From assembly GCF_003018115.1 (NCBI RefSeq), contig NZ_CP027457.1: DNA of 64,000 nucleotides; one strand, 5' to 3'. This stretch comes from Escherichia coli. Its GTDB lineage: Bacteria; Pseudomonadota; Gammaproteobacteria; Enterobacterales; Enterobacteriaceae. The position numbers and the translations under genes were made by a program. Shown here one piece after another: positions 10,719-64,000 of the stretch (positions are counted from its first letter, which is position 1; each line of letters starts with the position of its first letter). Below the pieces are notes generated by a model, which worked only from the letters and a program-made list of their open reading frames with translations, was not told where the DNA came from and ran no database searches.

Positions 10719-12041
10719 TTATTCGCTGATACGGCGATAGACAGTTGGTGTGCTTTCCGGTGCTTTATCGGCAAGTTTAATTGCCGCTTTCACCGCTTTC
10801 GCCGCTTCCTGCCAGCTGTTTTCGTCTTTCGCGTGGATAACCGCCAGCGGACGCTGACCGTCTACCTGGTCGCCCAGACGTGCCATATCAGTAAAGCCGA
10901 CGCTGTAATCGATGGTGTCAGATGCCTGACGGCGTCCACCGCCCATTGCAACCACTGCCATCCCCAGCGCGCGGGTATCCATTTCACTGACAAAACCTTC
11001 GGTATCAGCATAGACTGCTTTCGTCAGCATCGCTGTCGGCAGATACTTCGCGTAGTTCTCAACGAAGTCAGTCGGGCCTTTTTGTGCCGCTACCATACGA
11101 CCAAAGACTTCTGCCGCTTTACCGTTGTCCAGCACCGCCTGCAATTTCGCGCGCGCTTCGGCGTCATCTTTCGCCAGTTTGCCGGAGATCAGCATCTCCA
11201 CACACAGCGCCATCGTGACATCAAACAGACGCGGGTTACGATATTCACCCGTCAGGAACTGCACCGCTTCACGAACTTCAACCGCGTTACCTGCACTGGA
11301 GGCCAGTACCTGATTCATGTCGGTGAGCAGCGCGGTGGTGCGCACGCCAGCGCCGTTAGCCACGCCAACAATCGCTTCGGCAAGGGCTTCAGAGAGTTCG
11401 TAGGTCGGCATAAACGCGCCGCTACCCACTTTCACGTCCATCACCAGCGCATCCAGACCTTCCGCCAGTTTCTTCGCCAGGATCGAGGCAGTGATCAGCG
11501 GGATGGAGTCCACGGTTGCGGTAATATCACGGGTCGCGTAGAAACGTTTATCAGCCGGAGCCAGTGAACTGGTCTGACCGATAATCGCCACGCCGACGTC
11601 TTTAATAATTTCGCGGAAACGGTTGTCATCCGGGAAAATGTCGAAGCCAGGGATGGATTCCAGTTTGTCGAGCGTACCGCCAGTATGACCGAGGCCGCGA
11701 CCGGAGATCATCGGAATATAGCCGCCGCAGGCTGCGACCATCGGCCCCAACATCAGCGAAGTCACATCGCCGACGCCACCGGTGGAGTGTTTATCAACAA
11801 TCGGGCCATTCAGATGCAGGCTTTTCCAGTCGAGAACGGTTCCTGAATCTCGCATCGCCATGGTCAGCGAGACACGCTCAGGCATTGTCATATCGTGGAA
11901 GAAAATGGTCATCGCGAGGGCGGCAATCTGCCCTTCGGAGATAGTGTTGTCGCGAATACCGTTGATAAAGAAACGAATTTCTTCATCGCTCAGCGCATGA
12001 CCATCACGTTTTTTACGAATAATTTCTTGTGCGAGAAACAA
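10719..12041 (-). CDS. deoA: thymidine phosphorylase DeoA (440 aa, TTG start)
   Basis: ORF track 440 aa; minus-strand start codon is TTG preceded by GGGAGG. Confidence 0.95.
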
Positions 12042-12077
12042 GGTAACCTCCCGAGGAAAAGAGTATGAGGCGGCTTT

Positions 12078-12155
12078 TGCCGGATGCGTCTACGCCTTAT
12101 CCGGCCTACGGGTAGATACGTCTCGTAGGCCTGATAAGCGCAGCGCATCAGGCGT
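12078..12155. repeat. REP element pair between deoC and deoA
   Basis: TGCCGGATGCG...CTTATCCGGCCTAC and inverted GTAGGCCTGATAAGCG...CATCAGGCG units. Confidence 0.8.
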
Positions 12156-12167
12156 AAAGCATCTTAC

Positions 12168-12947
12168 TTAGTAGCTGCTGGCGCTCTTACCGTCACCGTG
12201 GCCCAGCGCTTTCAACAGGCTTGCCAGCAGGCTGGAAGCACCAAAGCGGTAGTGACGCGCATCTGCCCAGTCAGCACCGAACAGTTCATCTGCGATGGCG
12301 AGATATTTCTGCGCATCTTCCGCAGTACGCACGCCGCCCGCTGGTTTGAAACCAACGGTTTTTTCTACGCCCATATCACGGATCACTTCCATCATGATGC
12401 GCGCGCTTTCCGGCGTCGCGTTCACAGCCACTTTACCGGTAGAGGTTTTGATGAAGTCCGCACCCGCTTTGATGGAGATTTCAGACGCTTTACGGATCAG
12501 CGCTTCGTCTTTCAGTTCGCCAGTTTCGATGATCACTTTCAGCAGTACATTCGCTGCCGCGCAAGCCTCTTTACAGGCTTTCACCAGGTCAAAACCAACC
12601 TGCTCGTTACCCGCCATCAGCGCGCGGTACGGGAACACCACGTCAACTTCATCAGCACCGTAGGCGATTGCCGCACGGGTTTCTGCCAGCGCGATTTCGA
12701 TGTCGTCGTTACCGTGTGGGAAGTTGGTTACCGTAGCAATACGGATTTCCGGGGTGCCCTGCTCTTTCAGTGTTTTGCGAGCAATCGGGATAAAGCGAGG
12801 ATAGATACAGATAGCGGCGGTATTGCCGACCGGGGTTTTGGCCTGATGACACAGAGCAATTACTTTCTCGTCGGTGTCGTCGTCATTCAGGGTGGTCAGG
12901 TCCATCAATTTCAGTGCACGCAGGCTGCTTGCTTTCAGATCAGTCAT
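12168..12947 (-). CDS. deoC: deoxyribose-phosphate aldolase DeoC (259 aa)
   Basis: ORF track; start at internal ATG giving [29 protein letters not shown]. Confidence 0.95.
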
Positions 12948-12991
12948 TTCATTCTCCTGGCTTGTCGCCAATAAAATTCACCTTGCGAGTT

Positions 12992-13007
12992 TGTTAGTAT
13001 TCTAACA
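12992..13007 (-). promoter_or_regulatory. DeoR operator O2 at deoP2
   Basis: 16-bp near-palindrome TGTTAGTATTCTAACA (TGTTAGAATACTAACA in deoC orientation), 45 bp upstream of the deoC ATG. Confidence 0.75.
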
Positions 13008-13018
13008 TCTACTCCGCA

Positions 13019-13040
13019 ACACACTTCGATACACATCACA
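13019..13040 (-). promoter_or_regulatory. CRP site 1 of deoP2
   Basis: minus strand reads TGTGATGTGTATCGAAGTGTGT; centre about 40 bp upstream of the expected P2 start, overlapping O2 downstream. Confidence 0.65.
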
Positions 13041-15590: not shown

Positions 15591-16095
15591 CATGCCGGAT
15601 ACGGCCTACGGTTCGGCACAGACTTGTAGGCCTGATAAGACGCGTCAAGCGTCGCATCAGGCATTGTGCGCCAACTGCCGGATGCGGCGTGAACGCCTTA
15701 TCCGGCCTACGGTTCGGCACAGACTTGTAGGCATGATAAGACGCGTCAGCGTCGCATCAGGCATTGTGCGCCAACTGCCGGATGCGGCGTGAACGCCTTA
15801 TCCGGCCTACGGTTCGGCACAGACTTGTAGGCATGATAAGACGCGTCAGCGTCGCATCAGGCATTGTGCGCCAACTGCCGGATGCGGCGTGAACGCCTTA
15901 TCCGGCCTATGGTTCGGCACAGACTTGTAGGCATGATAAGACGCGTCAGTGTCGCATCAGGCATTGTGCGCCAACTGCCGGATGCGGCGTGAACGCCTTA
16001 TCCGGCCTACGGTTCGGCACAGACTTGTAGGCATGATAAGACGCGTCAAGCGTCGCATCAGGCATTATGCGCCGACTGCCGGATGCTGCCTACGA
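15591..16095. repeat. tandem REP/BIME array, five ~100-bp units
   Basis: GGTTCGGCACAGACTTGTAGGC recurs at 15610, 15711, 15811, 15911 and 16011; each unit holds two inverted REP palindromes. Confidence 0.9.
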
Positions 16096-23965: not shown

Positions 23966-24052
23966 GCGAAGGTGGCGGAATTGGTAGACGCGCTAGCTTC
24001 AGGTGTTAGTGTCCTTACGGACGTGGGGGTTCAAGTCCCCCCCCTCGCACCA
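23966..24052 (+). tRNA. leuV: tRNA-Leu (anticodon CAG), 87 nt
   Basis: GCGAAGGTGGCGGAATTGGTAGACGCGCTAGCTTCAGGTG...TCGCACCA with encoded CCA and long variable arm. Confidence 0.95.
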
Positions 24053-24080
24053 AAAACCACGTTGATATTGCTCGCACTGG

Positions 24081-24166
24081 GCGAAGGTGGCGGAATTGGT
24101 AGACGCGCTAGCTTCAGGTGTTAGTGTTCTTACGGACGTGGGGGTTCAAGTCCCCCCCTCGCACCA
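24081..24166 (+). tRNA. leuP: tRNA-Leu (anticodon CAG), variant copy of 86 nt
   Basis: same as flanking copies except C to T in the variable arm (GTGTTCTT vs GTGTCCTT) and a C-run of 7 instead of 8 at the T-stem/acceptor junction. Confidence 0.85.
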
Positions 24167-24200
24167 AACGAGGCGATATCAAAAAAAGTAAGATGACTGT

Positions 24201-24287
24201 GCGAAGGTGGCGGAATTGGTAGACGCGCTAGCTTCAGGTGTTAGTGTCCTTACGGACGTGGGGGTTCAAGTCCCCCCCCTCGCACCA
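24201..24287 (+). tRNA. leuQ: tRNA-Leu (anticodon CAG), 87 nt
   Basis: identical to the first copy. Confidence 0.95.
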
Positions 24288-54926: not shown

Positions 54927-57900
54927 ATGATGAATAAATCCAATTTTGAATTCCTGAAGGGCGTCAACGACTTTACCTATGCCATCGCCTGTGCGGCGGA
55001 AAATAACTACCCGGATGATCCCAACACGACGCTGATTAAAATGCGTATGTTTGGCGAAGCCACAGCGAAACATCTTGGTCTGTTACTCAACATCCCCCCT
55101 TGTGAGAATCAACACGATCTCCTGCGCGAACTCGGCAAAATCGCCTTCGTTGATGACAACATTCTCTCTGTATTCCACAAATTACGCCGCATTGGTAACC
55201 AGGCGGTGCACGAATATCATAACGATCTCGACGATGCCCAGATGTGCCTGCGACTCGGGTTTCGCCTGGCTGTCTGGTACTACCGTCTGGTCACTAAAGA
55301 TTATGACTTCCCGGTGCCGGTGTTTGTGTTGCCGGAACGTGGTGAAAACCTCTATCACCAGGAAGTGCTGACGCTAAAACAACAGCTTGAACAGCAGGTG
55401 CGAGAAAAAGCGCAGAGTCAGGCAGAAGTCGAAGCACAACAGCAGAAGCTGGTTGCCCTGAACGGCTATATCGCCATTCTGGAAGGCAAGCAGCAGGAAA
55501 CCGAAGCGCAAACCCAGGCTCGCCTTGCTGCACTGGAAGCACAGCTCGCCGAGAAGAACGCGGAACTAGCCAAGCAGACCGAACAGGAACGTAAGGCTTA
55601 CCACAAAGAAATTACCGATCAGGCCATCAAGCGTACACTCAATCTTAGCGAAGAAGAGAGCCGCTTCCTGATTGACGCGCAACTGCGTAAAGCAGGCTGG
55701 CAGGCCGATAGCAAAACCCTGCGCTTCTCCAAAGGCGCGCGCCCGGAACCCGGCGTCAATAAAGCCATTGCCGAATGGCCGACCGGGAAAGATGAAACGG
55801 GTAATCAGGGCTTTGCGGATTATGTGCTGTTTGTCGGTCTCAAACCCATCGCGGTGGTAGAAGCGAAACGTAAAAATATCGACGTTCCCGGCAAGCTCAA
55901 TGAGTCGTATCGCTACAGTAAATGTTTCGATAATGGCTTCCTGCGGGAAACCTTGCTTGAGCACTACTCACCGGATGAAGTGCATGAAGCGGTGCCGGAG
56001 TATGAAACCAGTTGGCAGGACACCAGCGGCCAACAACGGTTTAAAATCCCCTTCTGCTACTCGACCAACGGGCGCGAATACCGCGCAGCGATGAAGACTA
56101 AAAGTGGCATCTGGTATCGCGACGTGCGTGATACCCGCAATATGTCGAAAGCCTTACCCGAGTGGCATCGCCCGGAAGAGTTGCTGGAAATGCTCGGCAG
56201 CGAACCGCAAAAACAGAATCAGTGGTTTGCCGATAATCCCGGCATGAGCGAGCTGGGCCTGCGTTATTATCAGGAAGATGCCGTCCGCGCGGTTGAAAAG
56301 GCAATCGTCAAGGGTCAACAAGAGATCCTGCTGGCGATGGCGACCGGTACCGGTAAAACCCGCACCGCAATTGCCATGATGTTCCGCCTGATCCAGTCCC
56401 AGCGTTTTAAACGCATTCTCTTCCTTGTGGATCGCCGTTCTCTTGGCGAGCAGGCGCTGGGGGCGTTTGAAGATACGCGTATTAACGGCGACACTTTCAA
56501 CAGCATTTTCGACATTAAAGGGCTGACGGATAAATTCCCCGAAGACAGCACCAAAATTCACGTTGCCACCGTACAGTCGCTGGTGAAACGCACCCTGCAA
56601 TCGGATGAACCGATGCCGGTAGCCCGTTACGACTGTATCGTCGTCGATGAAGCGCATCGCGGCTATATTCTCGATAAAGAGCAGACCGAAGGCGAACTGC
56701 AGTTCCGCAGCCAACTGGATTACGTTTCTGCCTACCGTCGTATTCTCGATCACTTCGATGCGGTAAAAATTGCTCTCACCGCCACCCCGGCGCTGCATAC
56801 GGTGCAGATTTTCGGCGAGCCGGTTTACCGTTACACCTACCGTACCGCGGTTATCGACGGTTTTCTGATCGACCAGGATCCGCCGATTCAGATCACCACC
56901 CGCAACGCACAGGAAGGGGTTTATCTCTCCAAAGGCGAGCAGGTTGAGCGCATCAGCCCGCAGGGGGAAGTGATCAACGACACCCTGGAAGACGATCAGG
57001 ATTTTGAGGTCGCCGACTTTAACCGTGGCCTGGTGATCCCGGCGTTTAACCGCGCCGTCTGTAACGAACTCACCAACTACCTTGACCCGACCGGGTTACA
57101 AAAAACGCTGGTCTTCTGCGTCACCAATGCCCATGCCGATATGGTGGTGGAAGAGTTGCGTACCGCGTTCAAGAAAAAGTATCCGCAACTGGAGCACGAC
57201 GCGATCATCAAGATCACCGGTGATGCCGATAAAGACGCGCGCAAAGTGCAGACCATGATCACCCGCTTCAATAAAGAGCGGCTGCCCAATATTGTCGTAA
57301 CCGTCGACCTGCTGACGACCGGCGTCGATATTCCGTCGATCTGTAATATCGTGTTCCTGCGTAAAGTACGCAGCCGTATTCTGTACGAGCAGATGAAAGG
57401 CCGCGCCACGCGCTTGTGCCCGGACGTGAATAAAACCAGCTTTAAGATTTTCGACTGCGTCGATATCTACAGCACGCTGGAGAGCGTCGATACCATGCGT
57501 CCGGTGGTGGTGCGCCCGAAGGTGGAACTGCAAACGCTGGTCAACGAAATTACCGATTCGGAAACCTATAAAATCACCGAAGCGGATGGCCGTAGCTTTG
57601 CCGAGCACAGCCATGAACAACTGGTGGCGAAGCTCCAGCGCATCATCGGCCTGGCCACGTTTAACCGTGACCGCAGCGAAACGATAGATAAACAGGTGCG
57701 TCGTCTGGATGAGCTATGCCAGGACGCGGCGGGCGTGAACTTTAACGGCTTCGCCTCGCGCCTGCGGGAAAAAGGGCCGCACTGGAGCGCCGAAGTCTTT
57801 AACAAACTGCCTGGCTTTATCGCCCGTCTGGAAAAGCTGAAAACCGACATCAACAACCTGAATGATGCGCCGATCTTCCTCGATATCGACGATGAAGTGG

Positions 57901-58439
57901 TGAGTGTAAAATCGCTGTACGGTGATTACGACACGCCGCAGGATTTCCTCGAAGCCTTTGACTCGCTGGTGCAACGTTCCCCGAACGCGCAACCAGCATT
58001 GCAGGCGGTGATTAATCGCCCGCGCGATCTCACCCGTAAAGGGCTGGTCGAGCTACAGGAGTGGTTTGACCGCCAGCACTTTGAGGAATCTTCCCTGCGC
58101 AAAGCGTGGAAAGAGACGCGCAATGAAGATATCGCCGCCCGGCTGATTGGACATATTCGCCGCGCTGCGGTGGGCGATGCGCTGAAACCGTTTGAGGAAC
58201 GTGTCGATCACGCGCTGACGCGCATTAAGGGCGAAAACGACTGGAGCAGCGAGCAATTAAGCTGGCTCGATCGTTTAGCGCAGGCGCTGAAAGAGAAAGT
58301 GGTGCTCGACGACGATGTCTTCAAAACCGGCAACTTCCACCGTCGCGGCGGGAAGGCGATGCTGCAAAGAACCTTTGACGATAATCTCGACAGCCTGCTC
58401 GATAAATTCAGCGATTATATCTGGGACGAGCTGGCCTGA
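54927..58439 (+). CDS. hsdR: Type I restriction enzyme R subunit HsdR (1170 aa)
   Basis: ORF track 1170 aa; helicase motif I ATGTGKT and DEAH box VVDEAHRG. Confidence 0.96.
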   Translation: MMNKSNFEFLKGVNDFTYAIACAAENNYPDDPNTTLIKMRMFGEATAKHLGLLLNIPPCENQHDLLRELGKIAFVDDNILSVFHKLRRIGNQAVHEYHNDLDDAQMCLRLGFRLAVWYYRLVTKDYDFPVPVFVLPERGENLYHQEVLTLKQQLEQQVREKAQSQAEVEAQQQKLVALNGYIAILEGKQQETEAQTQARLAALEAQLAEKNAELAKQTEQERKAYHKEITDQAIKRTLNLSEEESRFLIDAQLRKAGWQADSKTLRFSKGARPEPGVNKAIAEWPTGKDETGNQGFADYVLFVGLKPIAVVEAKRKNIDVPGKLNESYRYSKCFDNGFLRETLLEHYSPDEVHEAVPEYETSWQDTSGQQRFKIPFCYSTNGREYRAAMKTKSGIWYRDVRDTRNMSKALPEWHRPEELLEMLGSEPQKQNQWFADNPGMSELGLRYYQEDAVRAVEKAIVKGQQEILLAMATGTGKTRTAIAMMFRLIQSQRFKRILFLVDRRSLGEQALGAFEDTRINGDTFNSIFDIKGLTDKFPEDSTKIHVATVQSLVKRTLQSDEPMPVARYDCIVVDEAHRGYILDKEQTEGELQFRSQLDYVSAYRRILDHFDAVKIALTATPALHTVQIFGEPVYRYTYRTAVIDGFLIDQDPPIQITTRNAQEGVYLSKGEQVERISPQGEVINDTLEDDQDFEVADFNRGLVIPAFNRAVCNELTNYLDPTGLQKTLVFCVTNAHADMVVEELRTAFKKKYPQLEHDAIIKITGDADKDARKVQTMITRFNKERLPNIVVTVDLLTTGVDIPSICNIVFLRKVRSRILYEQMKGRATRLCPDVNKTSFKIFDCVDIYSTLESVDTMRPVVVRPKVELQTLVNEITDSETYKITEADGRSFAEHSHEQLVAKLQRIIGLATFNRDRSETIDKQVRRLDELCQDAAGVNFNGFASRLREKGPHWSAEVFNKLPGFIARLEKLKTDINNLNDAPIFLDIDDEVVSVKSLYGDYDTPQDFLEAFDSLVQRSPNAQPALQAVINRPRDLTRKGLVELQEWFDRQHFEESSLRKAWKETRNEDIAARLIGHIRRAAVGDALKPFEERVDHALTRIKGENDWSSEQLSWLDRLAQALKEKVVLDDDVFKTGNFHRRGGKAMLQRTFDDNLDSLLDKFSDYIWDELA

Positions 58440-58515
58440 CACGGTATCATTCCCGGCAATTTCTTCTTCTGCGGCCCAATAAATTTGGGCCGCTGCTTAA
58501 TTTACGGAACACCCA

Positions 58516-60105
58516 ATGAACAATAACGATCTGGTCGCGAAGCTGTGGAAGCTGTGCGACAACCTGCGCGATGGCGGCGTTTCCTATCAAAACTACGTCA
58601 ATGAACTCGCCTCGCTGCTGTTTTTGAAAATGTGTAAAGAGACCGGGCAGGAAGCGGAATACCTGCCGGAAGGCTACCGCTGGGATGACCTGAAATCCCG
58701 CATCGGCCAGGATCAATTGCAGTTCTACCGTAACCTGCTGGTACATCTGGGCGCCGACAATCAAAAGCTGGTGCAGGCGGTGTTCCAGAACGTCAACACC
58801 ACCATTACCCAGCCAAAACAGTTGACCGAACTGGTCACAAATATGGATTCGCTGGACTGGTATAACGGTGCGCACGGTAAGTCGCGCGATGACTTCGGCG
58901 ATATGTACGAAGGGCTGTTGCAGAAGAACGCCAACGAAACCAAGTCTGGCGCGGGCCAGTACTTCACCCCGCGTCCGCTGATTAAAACCATTATTCATCT
59001 GCTGAAACCGCAGCCGCGTGAAGTGGTGCAGGACCCGGCAGCAGGTACGGCGGGCTTTTTGATTGAAGCCGACCGCTACGTTAAGTCGCAGACCAATGAT
59101 CTGGACGACCTTGATGGCGATACGCAGGATTTCCAGATCCACCGCGCGTTTATCGGCCTCGAACTGGTGCCCGGCACCCGTCGTCTGGCGCTGATGAACT
59201 GCCTGCTGCACGATATTGAAGGCAACCTCGACCACGGCGGCGCAATCCGTCTGGGCAACACTCTGGGTAGCGACGGCGAAAACCTGCCGAAGGCGCATAT
59301 TGTCGCCACTAACCCGCCGTTTGGCAGCGCCGCAGGCACCAACATTACCCGCACCTTTGTTCACCCGACCAGCAATAAACAGTTGTGCTTTATGCAGCAT
59401 ATTATCGAAACGCTGCACCCCGGCGGTCGTGCGGCGGTGGTGGTGCCGGATAACGTGCTGTTTGAAGGCGGCAAAGGCACCGACATTCGTCGTGACCTGA
59501 TGGATAAGTGTCATCTGCACACTATTCTGCGTCTGCCGACCGGTATTTTTTACGCGCAGGGCGTGAAAACCAACGTGCTGTTCTTTACCAAAGGCACGGT
59601 GGCGAACCCGAATCAGGATAAGAACTGCACCGATGATGTGTGGGTGTACGACCTGCGTACCAATATGCCGAGCTTCGGCAAGCGCACGCCGTTTACTGAC
59701 GAACATCTGCAGCCGTTTGAGCGGGTGTATGGCGAAGATCCCCACGGCTTAAGCCCGCGCACTGAAGGCGACTGGGAATTCGACGCAGAAAAAAGTGAAA
59801 TTGCCGACAGCGAAGAGAACAAAAACACCGACCAGCATCTGGCTACCAGCCGCTGGCGCAAGTTCAGCCGCGAGTGGATCCGCACCGCGAAATCCGATTC
59901 GCTGGATATCTCCTGGCTGAAAGATAAAGACAGCATTGACGCCGACAACCTGCCGGAGCCGGATGTATTAGCGGCAGAAGCGATGGGCGAGCTGGTACAG
60001 GCGCTGGGCGAACTGGATGCGTTGATGCGTGAACTGGGGGCGAGCGATGAGGCGGATGCACAGCGTCAGTTGCTGGAAGAAGCGTTTGGTGGGGTGAAGG
60101 AATGA
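58516..60105 (+). CDS. hsdM: Type I restriction-modification M subunit HsdM, N6-adenine methyltransferase (529 aa)
   Basis: ORF track 529 aa; motif IV NPPFG and SAM-binding region. Confidence 0.96.
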   Translation: MNNNDLVAKLWKLCDNLRDGGVSYQNYVNELASLLFLKMCKETGQEAEYLPEGYRWDDLKSRIGQDQLQFYRNLLVHLGADNQKLVQAVFQNVNTTITQPKQLTELVTNMDSLDWYNGAHGKSRDDFGDMYEGLLQKNANETKSGAGQYFTPRPLIKTIIHLLKPQPREVVQDPAAGTAGFLIEADRYVKSQTNDLDDLDGDTQDFQIHRAFIGLELVPGTRRLALMNCLLHDIEGNLDHGGAIRLGNTLGSDGENLPKAHIVATNPPFGSAAGTNITRTFVHPTSNKQLCFMQHIIETLHPGGRAAVVVPDNVLFEGGKGTDIRRDLMDKCHLHTILRLPTGIFYAQGVKTNVLFFTKGTVANPNQDKNCTDDVWVYDLRTNMPSFGKRTPFTDEHLQPFERVYGEDPHGLSPRTEGDWEFDAEKSEIADSEENKNTDQHLATSRWRKFSREWIRTAKSDSLDISWLKDKDSIDADNLPEPDVLAAEAMGELVQALGELDALMRELGASDEADAQRQLLEEAFGGVKE

Positions 60106-61430
60106 GTGCGGGGAAATTGCCAGAGGGGTGGGTTGAAACTCAATTAGAAAATATCGTTGATATTTTAGACTCAATGCGTGTCCCGGTTAATAATTCTGAG
60201 AGACAATCACGCATTGCAGGAAAAAAAGAAAATGAACTTTATCCCTATTTTGGTGCTACCGGTGAAGTCGGTAAAATTGATGATTATATTTTTGATGAAG
60301 AACTTGTTGCATTAGGTGAAGATGGTGTTCCTTTTTTTGATGGGCACAAAAATAAGGCTTATATGCTGTATGGTAAAACGTGGGTGAATAATCATGCTCA
60401 TGTAATAAGAGCTATCTCTGGACTAAGCCATAACAAGTATTTATGCCATTATCTTAACCAATTCGACTATCATGATTATGTAAACGGCGGGACCAGGCTT
60501 AAACTTACACAAGCGAATATGAGAAAACTACCTGTTAGTTTAGCGCCTCTCGCCGAACAAAAAATCATCGCAGAAAAACTCGATACGCTGCTGGCGCAGG
60601 TAGAGAGCACCAAAGCACGTCTTGAGCAAATCCCACAAATCCTGAAACGTTTTCGTCAGGCGGTGTTGGCTGCTGTTGTTAATGGAAAATTATCAAAGAA
60701 CACGAAGCAATGGGAAATATACTTATTAAAAAATCTTTGTACTAGCATTTCAGATGGCGATCATCAGGCTCCTCCAAAATCAGAAACAGGAGTGCCTTTC
60801 CTCGTAATCTCCGATGTTAATAAAGGGGTGATTGATTTTGATAATGTAACCAGATGGGTGCCTGAATCTTACTACCAATCGCTAAAAGAAATTAGAAAAC
60901 CATGCCAATATGATATTTTATATACAGTTACAGGTTCTTATGGAATACCTGTAATTGTTAACGACAATAAACCATTTTGTTTCCAGCGACATATTGCCAT
61001 CATCAAGCCAAACAGAAATTTAATTGATCATAGATTCTTAGCTTTCTATTTAGAATCACCACAAATTCTCAAACATGCAAGTGATGTTGCTACTGGGACC
61101 GCACAAAAAACAGTATCGCTGTCGAGTCTCCGAAATTTTGAGATCTCTGTTCCCCCTTTAAAAGAACAACACGAAATCGTTCGTCGCGTCGAGCAACTCT
61201 TCGCCTACGCCGACACTATTGAAAAACAGGTCAACAACGCCCTGGCCCGCGTCAACAACCTGACGCAATCCATTCTGGCAAAAGCGTTCCGTGGTGAACT
61301 CACCGCCCAGTGGCGGGCCGAAAACCCGGAATTGATCAGCGGAGAAAACAGCGCCGCCGCGTTGCTGGAGAAAATCAAAGCTGAACGCGCAGCCAGCGGG
61401 GGTAAAAAAGCCTCGCGTAAAAAATCCTGA
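60102..61430 (+). CDS. hsdS: Type I restriction-modification specificity subunit HsdS (442 aa), Type IA framework with non-EcoKI target-recognition domains
   Basis: ORF track; ATGA overlap with hsdM; conserved N-terminus MSAGKLPEGWV, central LAPLAEQKIIAEKLDTLLAQVESTKARLEQIPQILKRFRQAVL and C-terminal PPLKEQHEIVRRVEQLFAYADTIEKQVNNALARV blocks flank two AT-rich variable segments. Confidence 0.9.
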   Translation: MSAGKLPEGWVETQLENIVDILDSMRVPVNNSERQSRIAGKKENELYPYFGATGEVGKIDDYIFDEELVALGEDGVPFFDGHKNKAYMLYGKTWVNNHAHVIRAISGLSHNKYLCHYLNQFDYHDYVNGGTRLKLTQANMRKLPVSLAPLAEQKIIAEKLDTLLAQVESTKARLEQIPQILKRFRQAVLAAVVNGKLSKNTKQWEIYLLKNLCTSISDGDHQAPPKSETGVPFLVISDVNKGVIDFDNVTRWVPESYYQSLKEIRKPCQYDILYTVTGSYGIPVIVNDNKPFCFQRHIAIIKPNRNLIDHRFLAFYLESPQILKHASDVATGTAQKTVSLSSLRNFEISVPPLKEQHEIVRRVEQLFAYADTIEKQVNNALARVNNLTQSILAKAFRGELTAQWRAENPELISGENSAAALLEKIKAERAASGGKKASRKKS

Positions 61431-61562
61431 ACATTATTTTCTGGCGCACCTTTCCGGTGCGCTTTTAATTATTTCACGCCAATCATAATTCACGCAAATA
61501 TATTTAAATCACTCCAGAAATTGCCCATTTTATTCTATTTTTAGCTGGACTTTCCCTGTATT

Positions 61563-61582: not shown

Positions 61583-61589
61583 ATTTAGC

Positions 61590-61670
61590 GCGGTGCGGAT
61601 GTGCGCCAACACACCCGCACCGCTCATCACAATCACTATTTATGGAGAATAGTAATCATGACTGACACGC
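61590..61670 (-). ncRNA. symR: SymR antisense sRNA overlapping the symE 5' UTR and start codon (boundaries approximate)
   Basis: position opposite the symE translation initiation region; 9-bp-stem hairpin GCGGTGCGG / CCGCACCGC at 61590-61623; minus-strand TAGAAT-like -10 at 61671-61676. Ends are inferred, not read directly. Confidence 0.3.
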
Positions 61671-61999
61671 ATTCTATTGCACAACCGTTCGAAGCAGAAG
61701 TCTCCCCGGCAAATAACCGTCAATTAACCGTGAGTTATGCGAGCCGCTACCCGGATTACAGCCGTATTCCCGCCATCACCCTGAAAGGTCAGTGGCTGGA
61801 AGCCGCCGGTTTTGCCACCGGCACGGCGGTAGATGTCAAAGTGATGGAAGACTGTATTGTCCTCACCGCCCAACCCGCCGCCGCCGAAGAGAGCGAACTG
61901 ATGCAGTCACTGCGCCAGGTGTGCAAACTGTCGGCGCGTAAACAAAAGCAGGTGCAGGAGTTCATTGGGATGATTGCGGGTAAACAGAAAGTCGCCTGA
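61658..61999 (+). CDS. symE: SymE, SOS-induced toxin-like protein (113 aa)
   Basis: ORF track; start at internal ATG giving [38 protein letters not shown] 10 bp upstream. Confidence 0.9.
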
Positions 62000-62045: not shown

Positions 62046-64000
62046 TTATACCAACGCGCTCTCCATCTGTTTTTCAAATGCCTGACGAATTAATCCCATA
62101 ATATAAGGAAGTTGTGCGAGGTCGCTGAAACCAATTTCCACATCGCCATTGCCCCATCGCCCAACATTTGTCACATCTTTGGCAATACCTTTCGGATCGA
62201 CCAGTTCATGAAACTGCATATTAAGCGACAATCGCAGTCGGCTTTTTTGCGGCACAACATCAACAAAATTCGTTTCAGCTTTAAACGCAATATAGAGCTT
62301 CAATACTTCCTGCGTGATCCCTGCGTCCAGGCGCATAACTTCATCGCTAAGATGATCGAATAACACCCGGCTATGCGAACCATCAGCAAGAAAAGGATAA
62401 TCACTCAGGCTGTAACTGGTTTTGTTTTCCGGCTGCCCCCGATAAACAGCTAAAACCTCTTCAGGAAGAGAAGGCGCTTGCCAGACCTGAACCGCGAGAT
62501 CGGCCAGACGATCGGCTCGGGCGTGAATGGCGGCTTCATCCCATTTTTCGCACTGTCCAAGACCGATATTCAAATAAAGCGGGCTATGCTTAAAGCCGTC
62601 TTCAATATCGCGTTTTTCCGCGAAAGGTCTGTCACTGTAGCGGGAGTTATAGCGCGTTAAAGTGAGATTCCCCAACGTATGTAACAGTTCTTTATGCACA
62701 CGCTGCCAGTCGCTTCCCAGCTCTTCGCGCCATTTAGCCGACAAATTTTCGTTCTGCGGCATAATATGTTCAATCGTAAACTCTTCCACGCGCTCTCTGC
62801 GTTTATCGTTTTCCAGTCGTCGTAACCAGTAGCTGCGACTACGGAAGTTATAGAGATCGCGAACTTTTAATTCCCGTTTAAATTCATCATCGTTGGGGAA
62901 ACGACGATATGAAGGTAGATTCAAAAAATGTACCTGAATACTTTCCAGATAATTTTCTTTATTAATAACTTTATAAAAAGTGGCAAATGTCTTGTTCAAA
63001 GAATTTGTCGGAATTGCACATACTGCACGGCGGAAAACATAAGATTCAATTAAACGAATTATGCTCAGGAAATCTTCGTGAGACAAATCGTCATTTTTAT
63101 AGTCATGATAAAGCGCCAGTAAGAAAGGATACGCCACATCAACCTTTAACTCGCGCAAATCCTGAAAAGCCGTAGCAAGCGATTTGTCACTTTCTTTTCC
63201 CAATGCCATTGCACAGTAATACTCCGCGTAGATGTGAATATCTTCAACCAGCCGATCTACGCCTTTTTCAGCAACACTCTGGCTGCGGGCATGGAGTTTA
63301 AATGCCTCATAGACTTCATCTGTCCGAGGGATCTCCCCCGTTTTTACCGTCAGATAATGACGCATAAAACTGTCAAAATATTCGCTGTAACCTTGCTGAC
63401 CAAAAGCGACTTCCATTGGACGCCAGTGATCTTCATACAACCGGGTTTGATGCTCTGGTTCGAGGCCCATCAGAATAAAATTGCGCACCAGATCGGCCTG
63501 ACTTAACGCCTTACCGGTGGAGTTCATACTTTCAAAAATCAGTTGCGGATTATCCTGACCACGATTAAGCGCCACATCGACAATTAATAACTTTGCTAAC
63601 CCACGACATAAGGGGATCAAGTCATCACCGAGTTTGGCAATTTGCTCATCAAAGAAAGTAAAGTTTTCCATTATTCGATGGGAATAGTTTTCTGGCATTG
63701 GTCTTTGTTTTATTAACGCCAGTAAACTGTCTTTATCAGTCTCGGTCAGCAGTAATTTAAAACCTTTCTCGCCGGACTCATAAGGATTGAGCAAATAATA
63801 ATTACGCAATTTCATTGCCGAAAAGCCATCAAAAACTTCGTCTTCGCCAAGATGGCGCGATAAAGCCTCAATCAGCAACATTGCGGTCGTCAGCCGCTGC
63901 TGACCATCAATGACCAGCAACGGAGAAATACCAGAAACCTGATACAATCCCTGCTCTATATAAACAACCGAACCGATAAAATGCGCTGATATATCGTCAC
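62046..64000 (-). CDS. DUF262/DUF1524 (GmrSD-family) nuclease, candidate Type IV modification-dependent restriction enzyme; N-terminus lies beyond the window end
   Basis: ORF track 633 aa from an internal TTG, but the frame stays open to position 64000 (...DDISAHFIGSVVYIEQGLYQVSGISPLLVIDGQQRLTT); DUF262 hallmarks DGQQRLTT and IFESMNSTGKALSQADLVRNF; C-terminal DUF1524 His-Me-finger region EHIMPQNENLS...LHTLGNLTLTRYN; visibly AT-rich. Confidence 0.8.
   Translation of the reverse strand, partial: DDISAHFIGSVVYIEQGLYQVSGISPLLVIDGQQRLTTAMLLIEALSRHLGEDEVFDGFSAMKLRNYYLLNPYESGEKGFKLLLTETDKDSLLALIKQRPMPENYSHRIMENFTFFDEQIAKLGDDLIPLCRGLAKLLIVDVALNRGQDNPQLIFESMNSTGKALSQADLVRNFILMGLEPEHQTRLYEDHWRPMEVAFGQQGYSEYFDSFMRHYLTVKTGEIPRTDEVYEAFKLHARSQSVAEKGVDRLVEDIHIYAEYYCAMALGKESDKSLATAFQDLRELKVDVAYPFLLALYHDYKNDDLSHEDFLSIIRLIESYVFRRAVCAIPTNSLNKTFATFYKVINKENYLESIQVHFLNLPSYRRFPNDDEFKRELKVRDLYNFRSRSYWLRRLENDKRRERVEEFTIEHIMPQNENLSAKWREELGSDWQRVHKELLHTLGNLTLTRYNSRYSDRPFAEKRDIEDGFKHSPLYLNIGLGQCEKWDEAAIHARADRLADLAVQVWQAPSLPEEVLAVYRGQPENKTSYSLSDYPFLADGSHSRVLFDHLSDEVMRLDAGITQEVLKLYIAFKAETNFVDVVPQKSRLRLSLNMQFHELVDPKGIAKDVTNVGRWGNGDVEIGFSDLAQLPYIMGLIRQAFEKQMESALV

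Follow-up and report, generated by a model that had tools for sequence, protein, structure and literature searches.

A rare hsdS allele carrying divergent target-recognition domains on a conserved Type IA framework in Escherichia coli

The hsdRMS locus

The stretch of DNA analysed here (the window, 64,000 nucleotides of Escherichia coli contig NZ_CP027457.1) carries hsdR, hsdM and hsdS, all three intact (Table 1), within the gene order btsT-yjiX-yjiA-mrr-hsdR-hsdM-hsdS-symE, which is that of K-12 and corresponds to the E. coli immigration-control locus. The hsdM stop and the hsdS start overlap by 4 bp (ATGA; overlap sequence GGAATGAGTG) and the consensus scan that detected the hairpin listed in Table 1 also detected one 3' of hsdR. 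Catalytic motifs are visible in the translations of HsdR and HsdM, an NPPF motif is found in that of HsdM, and HsdR matches the PADLOC REase_I model over its full length. HsdS displays a full-length match to PADLOC Specificity_I (E=1.3e-148) and two stretches of Pfam Methylase_S (PF01420; E=7.2e-39; 134.1 bits for a gathering cut-off of 22). The solved structure closest to it by sequence is that of the EcoKI specificity protein (PDB 2y7c_A, E=6.6e-83) and the protein is 100% identical to WP_001719439.1 from E. coli F8111-1SC3. A phase-variable Type I system was considered and rejected: a tblastn search of the entire window with HsdS returns hsdS alone, without any additional copy, and this gene includes neither a repeat tract longer than A7/T7 nor tandem repeats.

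Table 1. Features of the hsdRMS operon, numbered from the first nucleotide of the window
Feature	Position	Strand	Description
hsdR	54927..58439	+	1170-aa restriction/translocase subunit; Pfam ResIII, HSDR_N, Helicase_C, EcoEI_R_C
hsdM	58516..60105	+	529-aa N6-adenine methyltransferase; Pfam N6_Mtase (2.9e-93), HsdM_N
hsdS	60102..61430	+	442-aa specificity subunit; ATG start; stop codon 61428-61430; ORF intact
N-terminal conserved block	60102..60134	+	aa 1-11, MSAGKLPEGWV; same as EcoKI HsdS
TRD1 (N-terminal target-recognition domain)	60135..60542	+	aa 12-147; GC 0.36
Central conserved region	60543..60689	+	aa 148-196; predicted long helix 150-194
TRD2 (C-terminal target-recognition domain)	60690..61148	+	aa 197-349; GC 0.36
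C-terminal conserved region	61149..61427	+	aa 350-442; predicted long helix 353-395 plus tail
Terminator-like GC hairpin, then T-run	61443..61463	+	directly 3' of hsdS; consensus scan, pattern match only

A Type IA framework

HsdR and HsdM align without any gap with their K-12 counterparts (98.9% and 96.0% amino acid identity, respectively), which places the hsdRMS system in Type IA, as judged from its sequence and chromosomal position. This family was historically delimited by genetic complementation and by cross-reaction of antibodies with EcoKI subunits (PMC3874165). HsdS displays the order expected for a Type IA S subunit, i.e. TRD1, central block, TRD2 and C-terminal block, with the conserved sequences specific to this type. 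In the alignment with EcoKI HsdS, residues 1-11, ~148-196 and 350-442 are ~90-100% identical. Residues 1-11 are the same in both proteins and, in blocks of 20 residues, identity to the K-12 protein reaches 0.6-0.9 across residues 141-200 and 0.95-1.0 across residues 361-442; the DNA of the central conserved block (60543..60689) is 87-95% identical to that of K-12. An earlier examination of the DNA without database searches (the sequence-only reading) had noted an EcoKI-type framework in the N-terminal, central and C-terminal blocks together with a length different from that of EcoKI HsdS, and the alignment bears out both points (442 versus 464 aa).

The AlphaFold2 model of HsdS (pLDDT 77) comprises a TRD (residues 11-147), a helix (150-194), a second TRD (205-350) and a second helix (353-395), with low confidence in part of TRD1 (pLDDT <50 at residues 38-71). 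All the top Foldseek matches of this model are S subunits of Type I or Type IIB systems (EcoKI, PacII, MjaS, TteS and EcoR124I).

Target-recognition domains unlike those of EcoKI and EcoBI

TRD1 and TRD2 are respectively ~15% and ~25% identical to the EcoKI TRDs in protein alignment, with 0.05-0.25 identity per 20-residue block in TRD1 and 0.1-0.4 in TRD2, and no similarity to K-12 DNA was detected within the TRD blocks. At the DNA level, identity changes by steps at ~60130/60545 and ~60690/61160; these are essentially the limits of the two variable segments (60130-60540 and 60700-61140) that the sequence-only reading had delimited and rightly held to be unlike EcoKI. The same comparison was carried out with EcoBI HsdS, whose sequence was rebuilt from the BL21 hsdS gene by taking out IS1: no similarity could be detected between TRD1 and its EcoBI counterpart, and TRD2 is 27.6% identical to EcoBI TRD2 over 116 aa.

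Each TRD of a Type I enzyme sets one half-site independently (Loenen et al. 2014, PMC3874165). Under this rule, the target of the present allele should be neither the EcoKI one, AAC(N6)GTGC, as had already been proposed, nor the EcoBI one, TGA(N8)TGCT, and both specificities were discarded. The question of whether the allele matches another characterised one, left open earlier, is thereby answered in part, with EcoBI excluded directly. The label 'EcoBI specificity protein' automatically given to the identical protein from LR882990 is wrong, since the EcoBI TRDs do not match. More generally, the automatic 'EcoKI/EcoBI specificity protein' names found among database relatives are contradicted by the sequences, and the other names are generic.

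Distribution and modular reassortment

The hsdS allele is rare yet not unique. It was found in 5 of 5426 complete E. coli genomes, mainly in the ETEC O169:H41 ST182 lineage, whereas its separate domains occur in nine (TRD1) and eight (TRD2) of these genomes. Using 65-70% or more DNA identity as a match, the two TRDs are confined, among complete RefSeq E. coli genomes, to 14 strains that have been little studied, and neither was found in the well-studied strains of this set. Furthermore, the identical protein is encoded by 258 public contigs, and 442-aa HsdS proteins with the same TRD pair are encoded by Klebsiella pneumoniae (P0263), Salmonella (P0258, P0261) and Citrobacter (P0267); taken together, these two observations argue for maintenance by selection.

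More distant relatives of the two modules were also detected. A degenerate DNA pattern for the peptide LTQSILAKAF, scanned over species-representative genomes, proved unexpectedly widespread, the matches listed including Pseudomonas, Vibrio, Shewanella, Halomonadaceae and others; among these matches, distant Gammaproteobacteria carry TRD1-like (71-72%) and TRD2-like (57-67%) modules. Relatives of the TRD modules with 53-72% identity reach Enterococcus, Deinococcus, Kangiella and Nitrincola. A plasmid-borne characterised system was ruled out as a counterpart, as the best matches of a tblastn search of PLSDB with each TRD are just 53% identical. Protein searches with single TRDs mostly returned short fragments and few full-length S subunits.

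Within E. coli, identity profiles of the DNA are mosaic, with abrupt steps at the TRD borders. The TRD1 block is 100% common to strain WP2-S18-ESBL-07, whose TRD2 differs, and the TRD2 block is 92-98% common to strain TC24, whose TRD1 differs, the partners being exchanged inside the 60546-60690 block or at its borders. TRD1 was found with at least 19 other types of C-terminal TRD and TRD2 with at least 16 other types of N-terminal TRD; such numerous alternative partners indicate classic modular reassortment. The allele would have been assembled by recombination inside the conserved blocks, and the shuffling of pre-existing TRD modules would explain why these are sharply delimited and have a base composition of their own.

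Proposed enzyme

HsdS very probably serves as the specificity subunit of a working restriction-modification enzyme of Type IA (EcoKI family), whose activity and target we infer. In the proposed enzyme, the two conserved helical blocks would form an antiparallel coiled coil that fixes the distance between the globular TRDs and docks two HsdM subunits, and HsdR would join this complex to give R2M2S1. TRD1 would read the 5' half-site of an asymmetric bipartite target and TRD2 the complement of the 3' half-site. M2S1 would methylate one adenine per half-site, and an unmethylated target would trigger ATP-driven translocation, then cleavage at a distance. The methylated bases are separated by 8 bp in all five characterised Type IA enzymes (Table 1 of Loenen et al. 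2014, PMC3874165); here, the central helix aligns with that of EcoKI without insertions or deletions, and the same spacing would therefore be expected between the adenines methylated in the target.

Origin, activity and specificity of the allele

The segments that the sequence-only reading had described as strongly AT-rich, quoting the string AATATCGTTGATATTTTAGACTCAATGCG (located at 60150-60178), are indeed so: GC is 0.358 in TRD1 and 0.362 in TRD2, versus 0.483 in the central block, 0.548 in the C-terminal block and 0.562 in hsdM. However, this composition is not special, as the TRDs of K-12 itself reach only 0.347 and 0.341; because these unrelated domains are equally low, low GC is a general property of Type IA TRDs, and AT-richness was rejected as evidence that the domains are foreign. 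That the TRDs were recently acquired from a donor of low GC, which would make them a foreign cassette instead of an old enterobacterial polymorphism, is thus quite unlikely, even if they (GC 0.36) depart from the whole window (0.52), the Klebsiella copy of hsdRMS adjoins a phage-type integrase and relatives of the TRDs with 53% identity lie on Enterococcus and Deinococcus plasmids. Besides the K-12 values, no relative exceeds 60% identity on any PLSDB plasmid and, between genera, the TRD pair diverges (82-88% identity) about as much as the framework (86-94%), which fits a long residence or an old polymorphism.

It is very unlikely that the system is silent or limited to modification in this strain, with intact genes but no effective restriction. 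Inactivation does occur at the locus, as indicated by broken copies of related alleles in TC24, whose hsdS annotation is that of a split pseudogene, and in HS-01, whose annotation is split; such pseudogenised alleles in some strains, together with the IS1 insertion in BL21 hsdS, imply that loss of function is tolerated. Here, by contrast, the three ORFs are full-length, HsdR and HsdM align gap-free to K-12, the signals of the operon look intact (hsdM/hsdS overlap, hairpins after hsdR and after hsdS) and 258 contigs encode the identical HsdS.

The allele may also be real but of a specificity already catalogued, either in REBASE, for an S subunit whose TRDs both reach 95% identity or more, or in a classical enzyme such as EcoDI, Eco394I, Eco826I, Eco851I or Eco912I; the chance of this is somewhat less than even. 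All three ST182 genomes with the exact allele are long-read assemblies, the PacBio runs of the F8111-1SC3, 2014EL-1345-2 and E1373 genomes would be a possible source of the motif, and REBASE gathers many E. coli S subunits under motifs obtained by SMRT sequencing, Eco646I alone covering 104 systems (PMC8287963). Against this, the well-studied E. coli strains of the complete-genome set are devoid of both TRDs, and the best 120 database relatives (each of at least 575 bits) include no abundant Salmonella allele and no entry, from E. coli or otherwise, named for a characterised enzyme, automatic EcoKI/EcoBI labels aside. This composition of the best relatives also speaks, though only indirectly, against the EcoDI, StyLTIII and StySPI specificities. 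Likewise, the searched literature does not mention the protein accession, the locus tag or any TRD peptide, and searches with the strains, the accession, ETEC methylomes and the TRD peptides found no methylation or restriction data on the allele. Assigning the TRD2 half-site through K. pneumoniae was attempted with P0347, a very common allele of this species (thousands of contigs) whose TRD2 is 83% identical. This route was dropped: a methylome paper on 14 K. pneumoniae strains reports ten Type I motifs but, according to its cloning primers, Type IA hsdM/hsdS ends are absent from all the systems cloned, and a South African K. pneumoniae study assigned no Type I motifs. That the TRD pair specifies a bipartite target present in no catalogue yet is a tentative reading, which we hold as a real possibility somewhat short of even.

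Significance

The allele is a routine hsdS polymorphism, i.e. textbook natural variation, and illustrates cleanly how TRDs are reassorted in nature while the Type IA scaffold that bears them is conserved. This principle was established in the 1980s and, conceptually, the allele brings nothing new. It would set the methylation signature, and hence the barrier to DNA uptake, of ETEC O169:H41/ST182 and of some Klebsiella and Salmonella strains. Knowledge of its motif would aid the transformation of carrier strains and the reading of their methylomes, a practical value that is modest. If its target proves to be uncatalogued, the allele family, with the many natural partners of both TRDs, would offer ready-made combinations from which the half-sites read by two widespread TRD modules could be assigned.

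Comparison with known systems

The EcoKI system of K-12 (Type IA, AAC N6 GTGC) shares with the present one its locus, operon order and hsdM/hsdS overlap, and the central and C-terminal blocks of the two HsdS are ~90% and ~99% identical, without indels in the helices. Between its hsdR and hsdM, K-12 carries an ERIC-like insertion of ~124 bp that this operon lacks, and the two loci also differ downstream of the operon, where a GmrSD-family gene stands in place of the K-12 mcrBC. EcoBI HsdS from E. coli B (Type IA, TGA N8 TGCT) also matches in the central and C-terminal conserved blocks, to which its 46.8% identity over aa 73-441 is owed, but it is 474 aa long and has a different N-terminus (MSFNSTSKE...).

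Other close counterparts are the Klebsiella, Salmonella and Citrobacter systems, whose HsdS share the length of 442 aa and the TRD pair (82-84% identity for TRD1, 83-88% for TRD2). They belong to Type IA-like operons with a short hsdR-hsdM spacer and an overall DNA identity of 82-90%, but lie at another genomic site, which in Klebsiella is beside a phage-type integrase gene and a YjiV-like helicase gene. Finally, StySQ and StySJ are hybrid Type IA systems that arose by crossover in the central region and for which the parental and hybrid target sequences are known (PMC3874165). The present allele shows this way of diversifying at work in nature.

Type IA framework and divergent recognition domains

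The hsdS allele is an ordinary hsdS polymorphism, i.e. a rare, already sequenced Type IA allele made of two widespread target-recognition domain (TRD) modules. By sequence, position and architecture, hsdRMS is a Type IA system. Indeed, HsdR and HsdM align without gaps to their K-12 counterparts (98.9% and 96.0% identity), and the hsdM/hsdR translations contain the methyltransferase motif NPPF, a DEAH box and a D...EXK nuclease motif. HsdS harbours two stretches of Pfam PF01420 (Methylase_S; 134 bits, E=7.2e-39), matches the PADLOC 'Type I specificity subunit' over its full length (E=1.3e-148) and has the EcoKI specificity protein (2y7c_A, E=6.6e-83) as its best sequence relative among solved structures. 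The stop codon of hsdM and the start codon of hsdS overlap within a shared ATGA. The neighbourhood is the E. coli immigration-control region, with mrr, yjiA, yjiX and btsT 5' of the operon and symE with its antisense RNA symR 3' of it.

Coordinates of hsdRMS and of other features of the window
Feature	Position	Strand	Description
hsdR	54927-58439	+	1170 aa; 5' of hsdM
hsdR-hsdM spacer	58440-58515		76 bp
hsdM	58516-60105	+	529 aa; directly 5' of hsdS
hsdS	60102-61430	+	single long ORF, ATG start, 442 aa
SymR RNA; symE	61587-61663; 61658-61999	-; +	SymR antisense to symE start
GmrSD-family gene	62046-64000	-	runs to ~64139 outside the window
naRNA4 (CssrE) REP-type elements	15629-16007		four in tandem, ~100 bp apart
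naRNA4 (CssrE)	2537-2615		another copy
tRNA genes	23966-24284		cluster of three

Alignment with the K-12 HsdS (464 aa, versus 442 aa here) reveals identical residues 1-11, a central block (~148-196) with ~90% identity and no indel, and a C-terminal block (350-442) with ~99% identity. In contrast, TRD1 (aa 12-147) and TRD2 (aa 197-349) share only ~15% and ~25% identity with their counterparts. In a sliding DNA comparison, identity to K-12 steps at ~60130/60545 and ~60690/61160. The sequence-only reading, which had proposed an EcoKI-type framework with unrelated, strongly AT-rich intervening segments and a length differing from that of the EcoKI subunit, is thus borne out, including the limits of the segments; the AT-rich string that it quoted lies at 60150-60178. 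TRD1 and TRD2 have GC contents of 0.358 and 0.362, respectively, lower than those of the conserved blocks (0.483 and 0.548) and of hsdM (0.56). However, the unrelated TRDs of K-12 are equally poor in GC (0.347 and 0.341), and low GC is therefore a general trait of Type IA TRDs rather than a mark of this allele.

Several features of the surroundings can also be described. SymR (Rfam RF01809, 95 bits) is located directly 3' of hsdS, as in K-12. The place of mcrBC is taken by the GmrSD-family gene (Pfam GmrSD_N, GmrSD_C and DUF5655; PADLOC 'Orf5', E=1.9e-223), which corresponds to 10945-13038 of comparison locus L001; its copy in strain F8111-1SC3 has 697 codons in an unbroken frame, and yet RefSeq splits it into a CDS and a partial pseudogene. 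The hsdR-hsdM spacer is 72 bp long in Klebsiella and 200 bp in K-12, where the extra ~124 bp are an insertion holding an imperfect palindrome that resembles an ERIC/IRU element.

Predicted structure and target

In an AlphaFold2 model based on an alignment of 41 full-length relatives (mean pLDDT 77; high for TRD2 and the helices, low for residues 38-71), the predicted layout is canonical: globular 11-147, helix 150-194, globular 205-350 and helix 353-395. The top PDB matches of this model in Foldseek are all S subunits (EcoKI model, PacII, M. jannaschii, T. tengcongensis, M. genitalium, EcoR124I and BsaXI).

The genes, their domain architecture and their modular ancestry are directly observed; the working of the enzyme is proposed from established knowledge of Type I systems (PMC3874165). 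The two helices would form a coiled-coil spacer, TRD1 would recognise the 5' half-site, and TRD2 would recognise the complement of the 3' one. Each half-site would be methylated at one adenine by M2S1, and R2M2S1 would translocate and cut at unmethylated sites. The central helix is as long as that of EcoKI, and in all five characterised Type IA enzymes the methylated bases are 8 bp apart despite N6-N8 spacers (PMC3874165). Therefore, an asymmetric bipartite m6A motif with an 8-bp interval is predicted by analogy. No sign of phase variation was found, the window carrying neither a second hsdS copy nor repeat tracts.

Relation to characterised alleles

The TRD identities of ~15% and ~25% rule out EcoKI. 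Whether the allele matches another characterised one (EcoBI, EcoDI and so on) had been left to a search, and for EcoBI the answer is negative. After removal of the IS1 insertion and its 8-bp target duplication from the BL21 gene, the rebuilt EcoBI HsdS (474 aa, versus 442 aa) has no detectable similarity in TRD1 and 27.6% identity over 116 aa in TRD2. The identical protein P0361 (CAD6017219.1, from LR882990) was automatically named 'Type I restriction enzyme EcoBI specificity protein'; its TRDs are unlike those of the reconstructed EcoBI, and this wrong label is therefore an annotation artefact. Among the 120 best database relatives, none is recognisable by name or abundance as EcoDI, StyLTIII or StySPI. 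In the literature searched, neither the protein nor its locus tag nor any TRD peptide is mentioned. The presence of its motif in REBASE is conceivable, the chances being slightly below even.

Distribution and reassortment of the TRDs

Sensitive blastn searches of 5426 complete E. coli genomes with each TRD separately detected TRD1 in 9 (with 2 further weak, partial matches) and TRD2 in 8; five have both. In none of the widely studied strains of this collection was DNA similarity to either TRD detected. The exact allele is carried by F8111-1SC3 (CP024269; hsdS 100% identical, 3 differences from the window in 12,899 overlapping bases), 2014EL-1345-2 and LR882990, all ETEC O169:H41, 2014EL-1345-2 belonging to ST182 and phylogroup E (PMC8454413, PMC8085198). 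The identical protein is found in 258 public contigs and a 98% variant (P0245) in 188; the setting of the latter is K-12-like, with mcrBC downstream and a long hsdR-hsdM spacer. Related genes can be broken: the sister allele of TC24 (locus L026, 1847-3241; same TRD2) figures in the annotation as two partial pseudogenes, and a 91% variant of TRD1 in HS-01 (H49) falls under a 'hypothetical protein' and a fragment of S.

Proteins with the same TRD pair, each again 442 aa long, occur in Salmonella enterica, Klebsiella pneumoniae, K. aerogenes and Citrobacter amalonaticus (TRDs 82-88% identical, framework 86-94%). In K. pneumoniae (loci L004-L011; 1-594, 7401-13329), hsdRMS is flanked by genes encoding a phage-type integrase and a 2106-aa YjiV-like DEAD-box helicase, which suggests carriage on a genomic island. 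More distant TRD relatives are found on Enterococcus and Deinococcus plasmids (53% identity) and, among the matches listed, in Kangiella, Chromatiaceae, Nitrincola, Vibrio rumoiensis and Thiotrichaceae genomes (57-72%); the two modules are thus ancient and widely distributed. Among the matches listed in species-representative genomes (L027-L146), the C-terminal motif LTQSILAKAF reaches Pseudomonas, Vibrio, Shewanella, Halomonadaceae, Methylobacter and some non-proteobacterial MAGs, and the central and C-terminal blocks there show 75-95% identity to the Type IA framework of E. coli. An 'EcoKI-type framework' is thus not peculiar to the enterobacteria.

Numerous other Type IA HsdS proteins have one of these TRDs but not the other. 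When the non-shared domain is clustered at 80%, at least 19 different C-terminal partners are counted for TRD1 and at least 16 different N-terminal partners for TRD2. The DNA of WP2-S18-ESBL-07 shows 100% identity across TRD1 and falls to ~40% past the central block, and TC24 displays the mirror image. These two profiles parallel, in natural strains, the StySQ/StySJ crossovers on which TRD modularity was established (PMC3874165).
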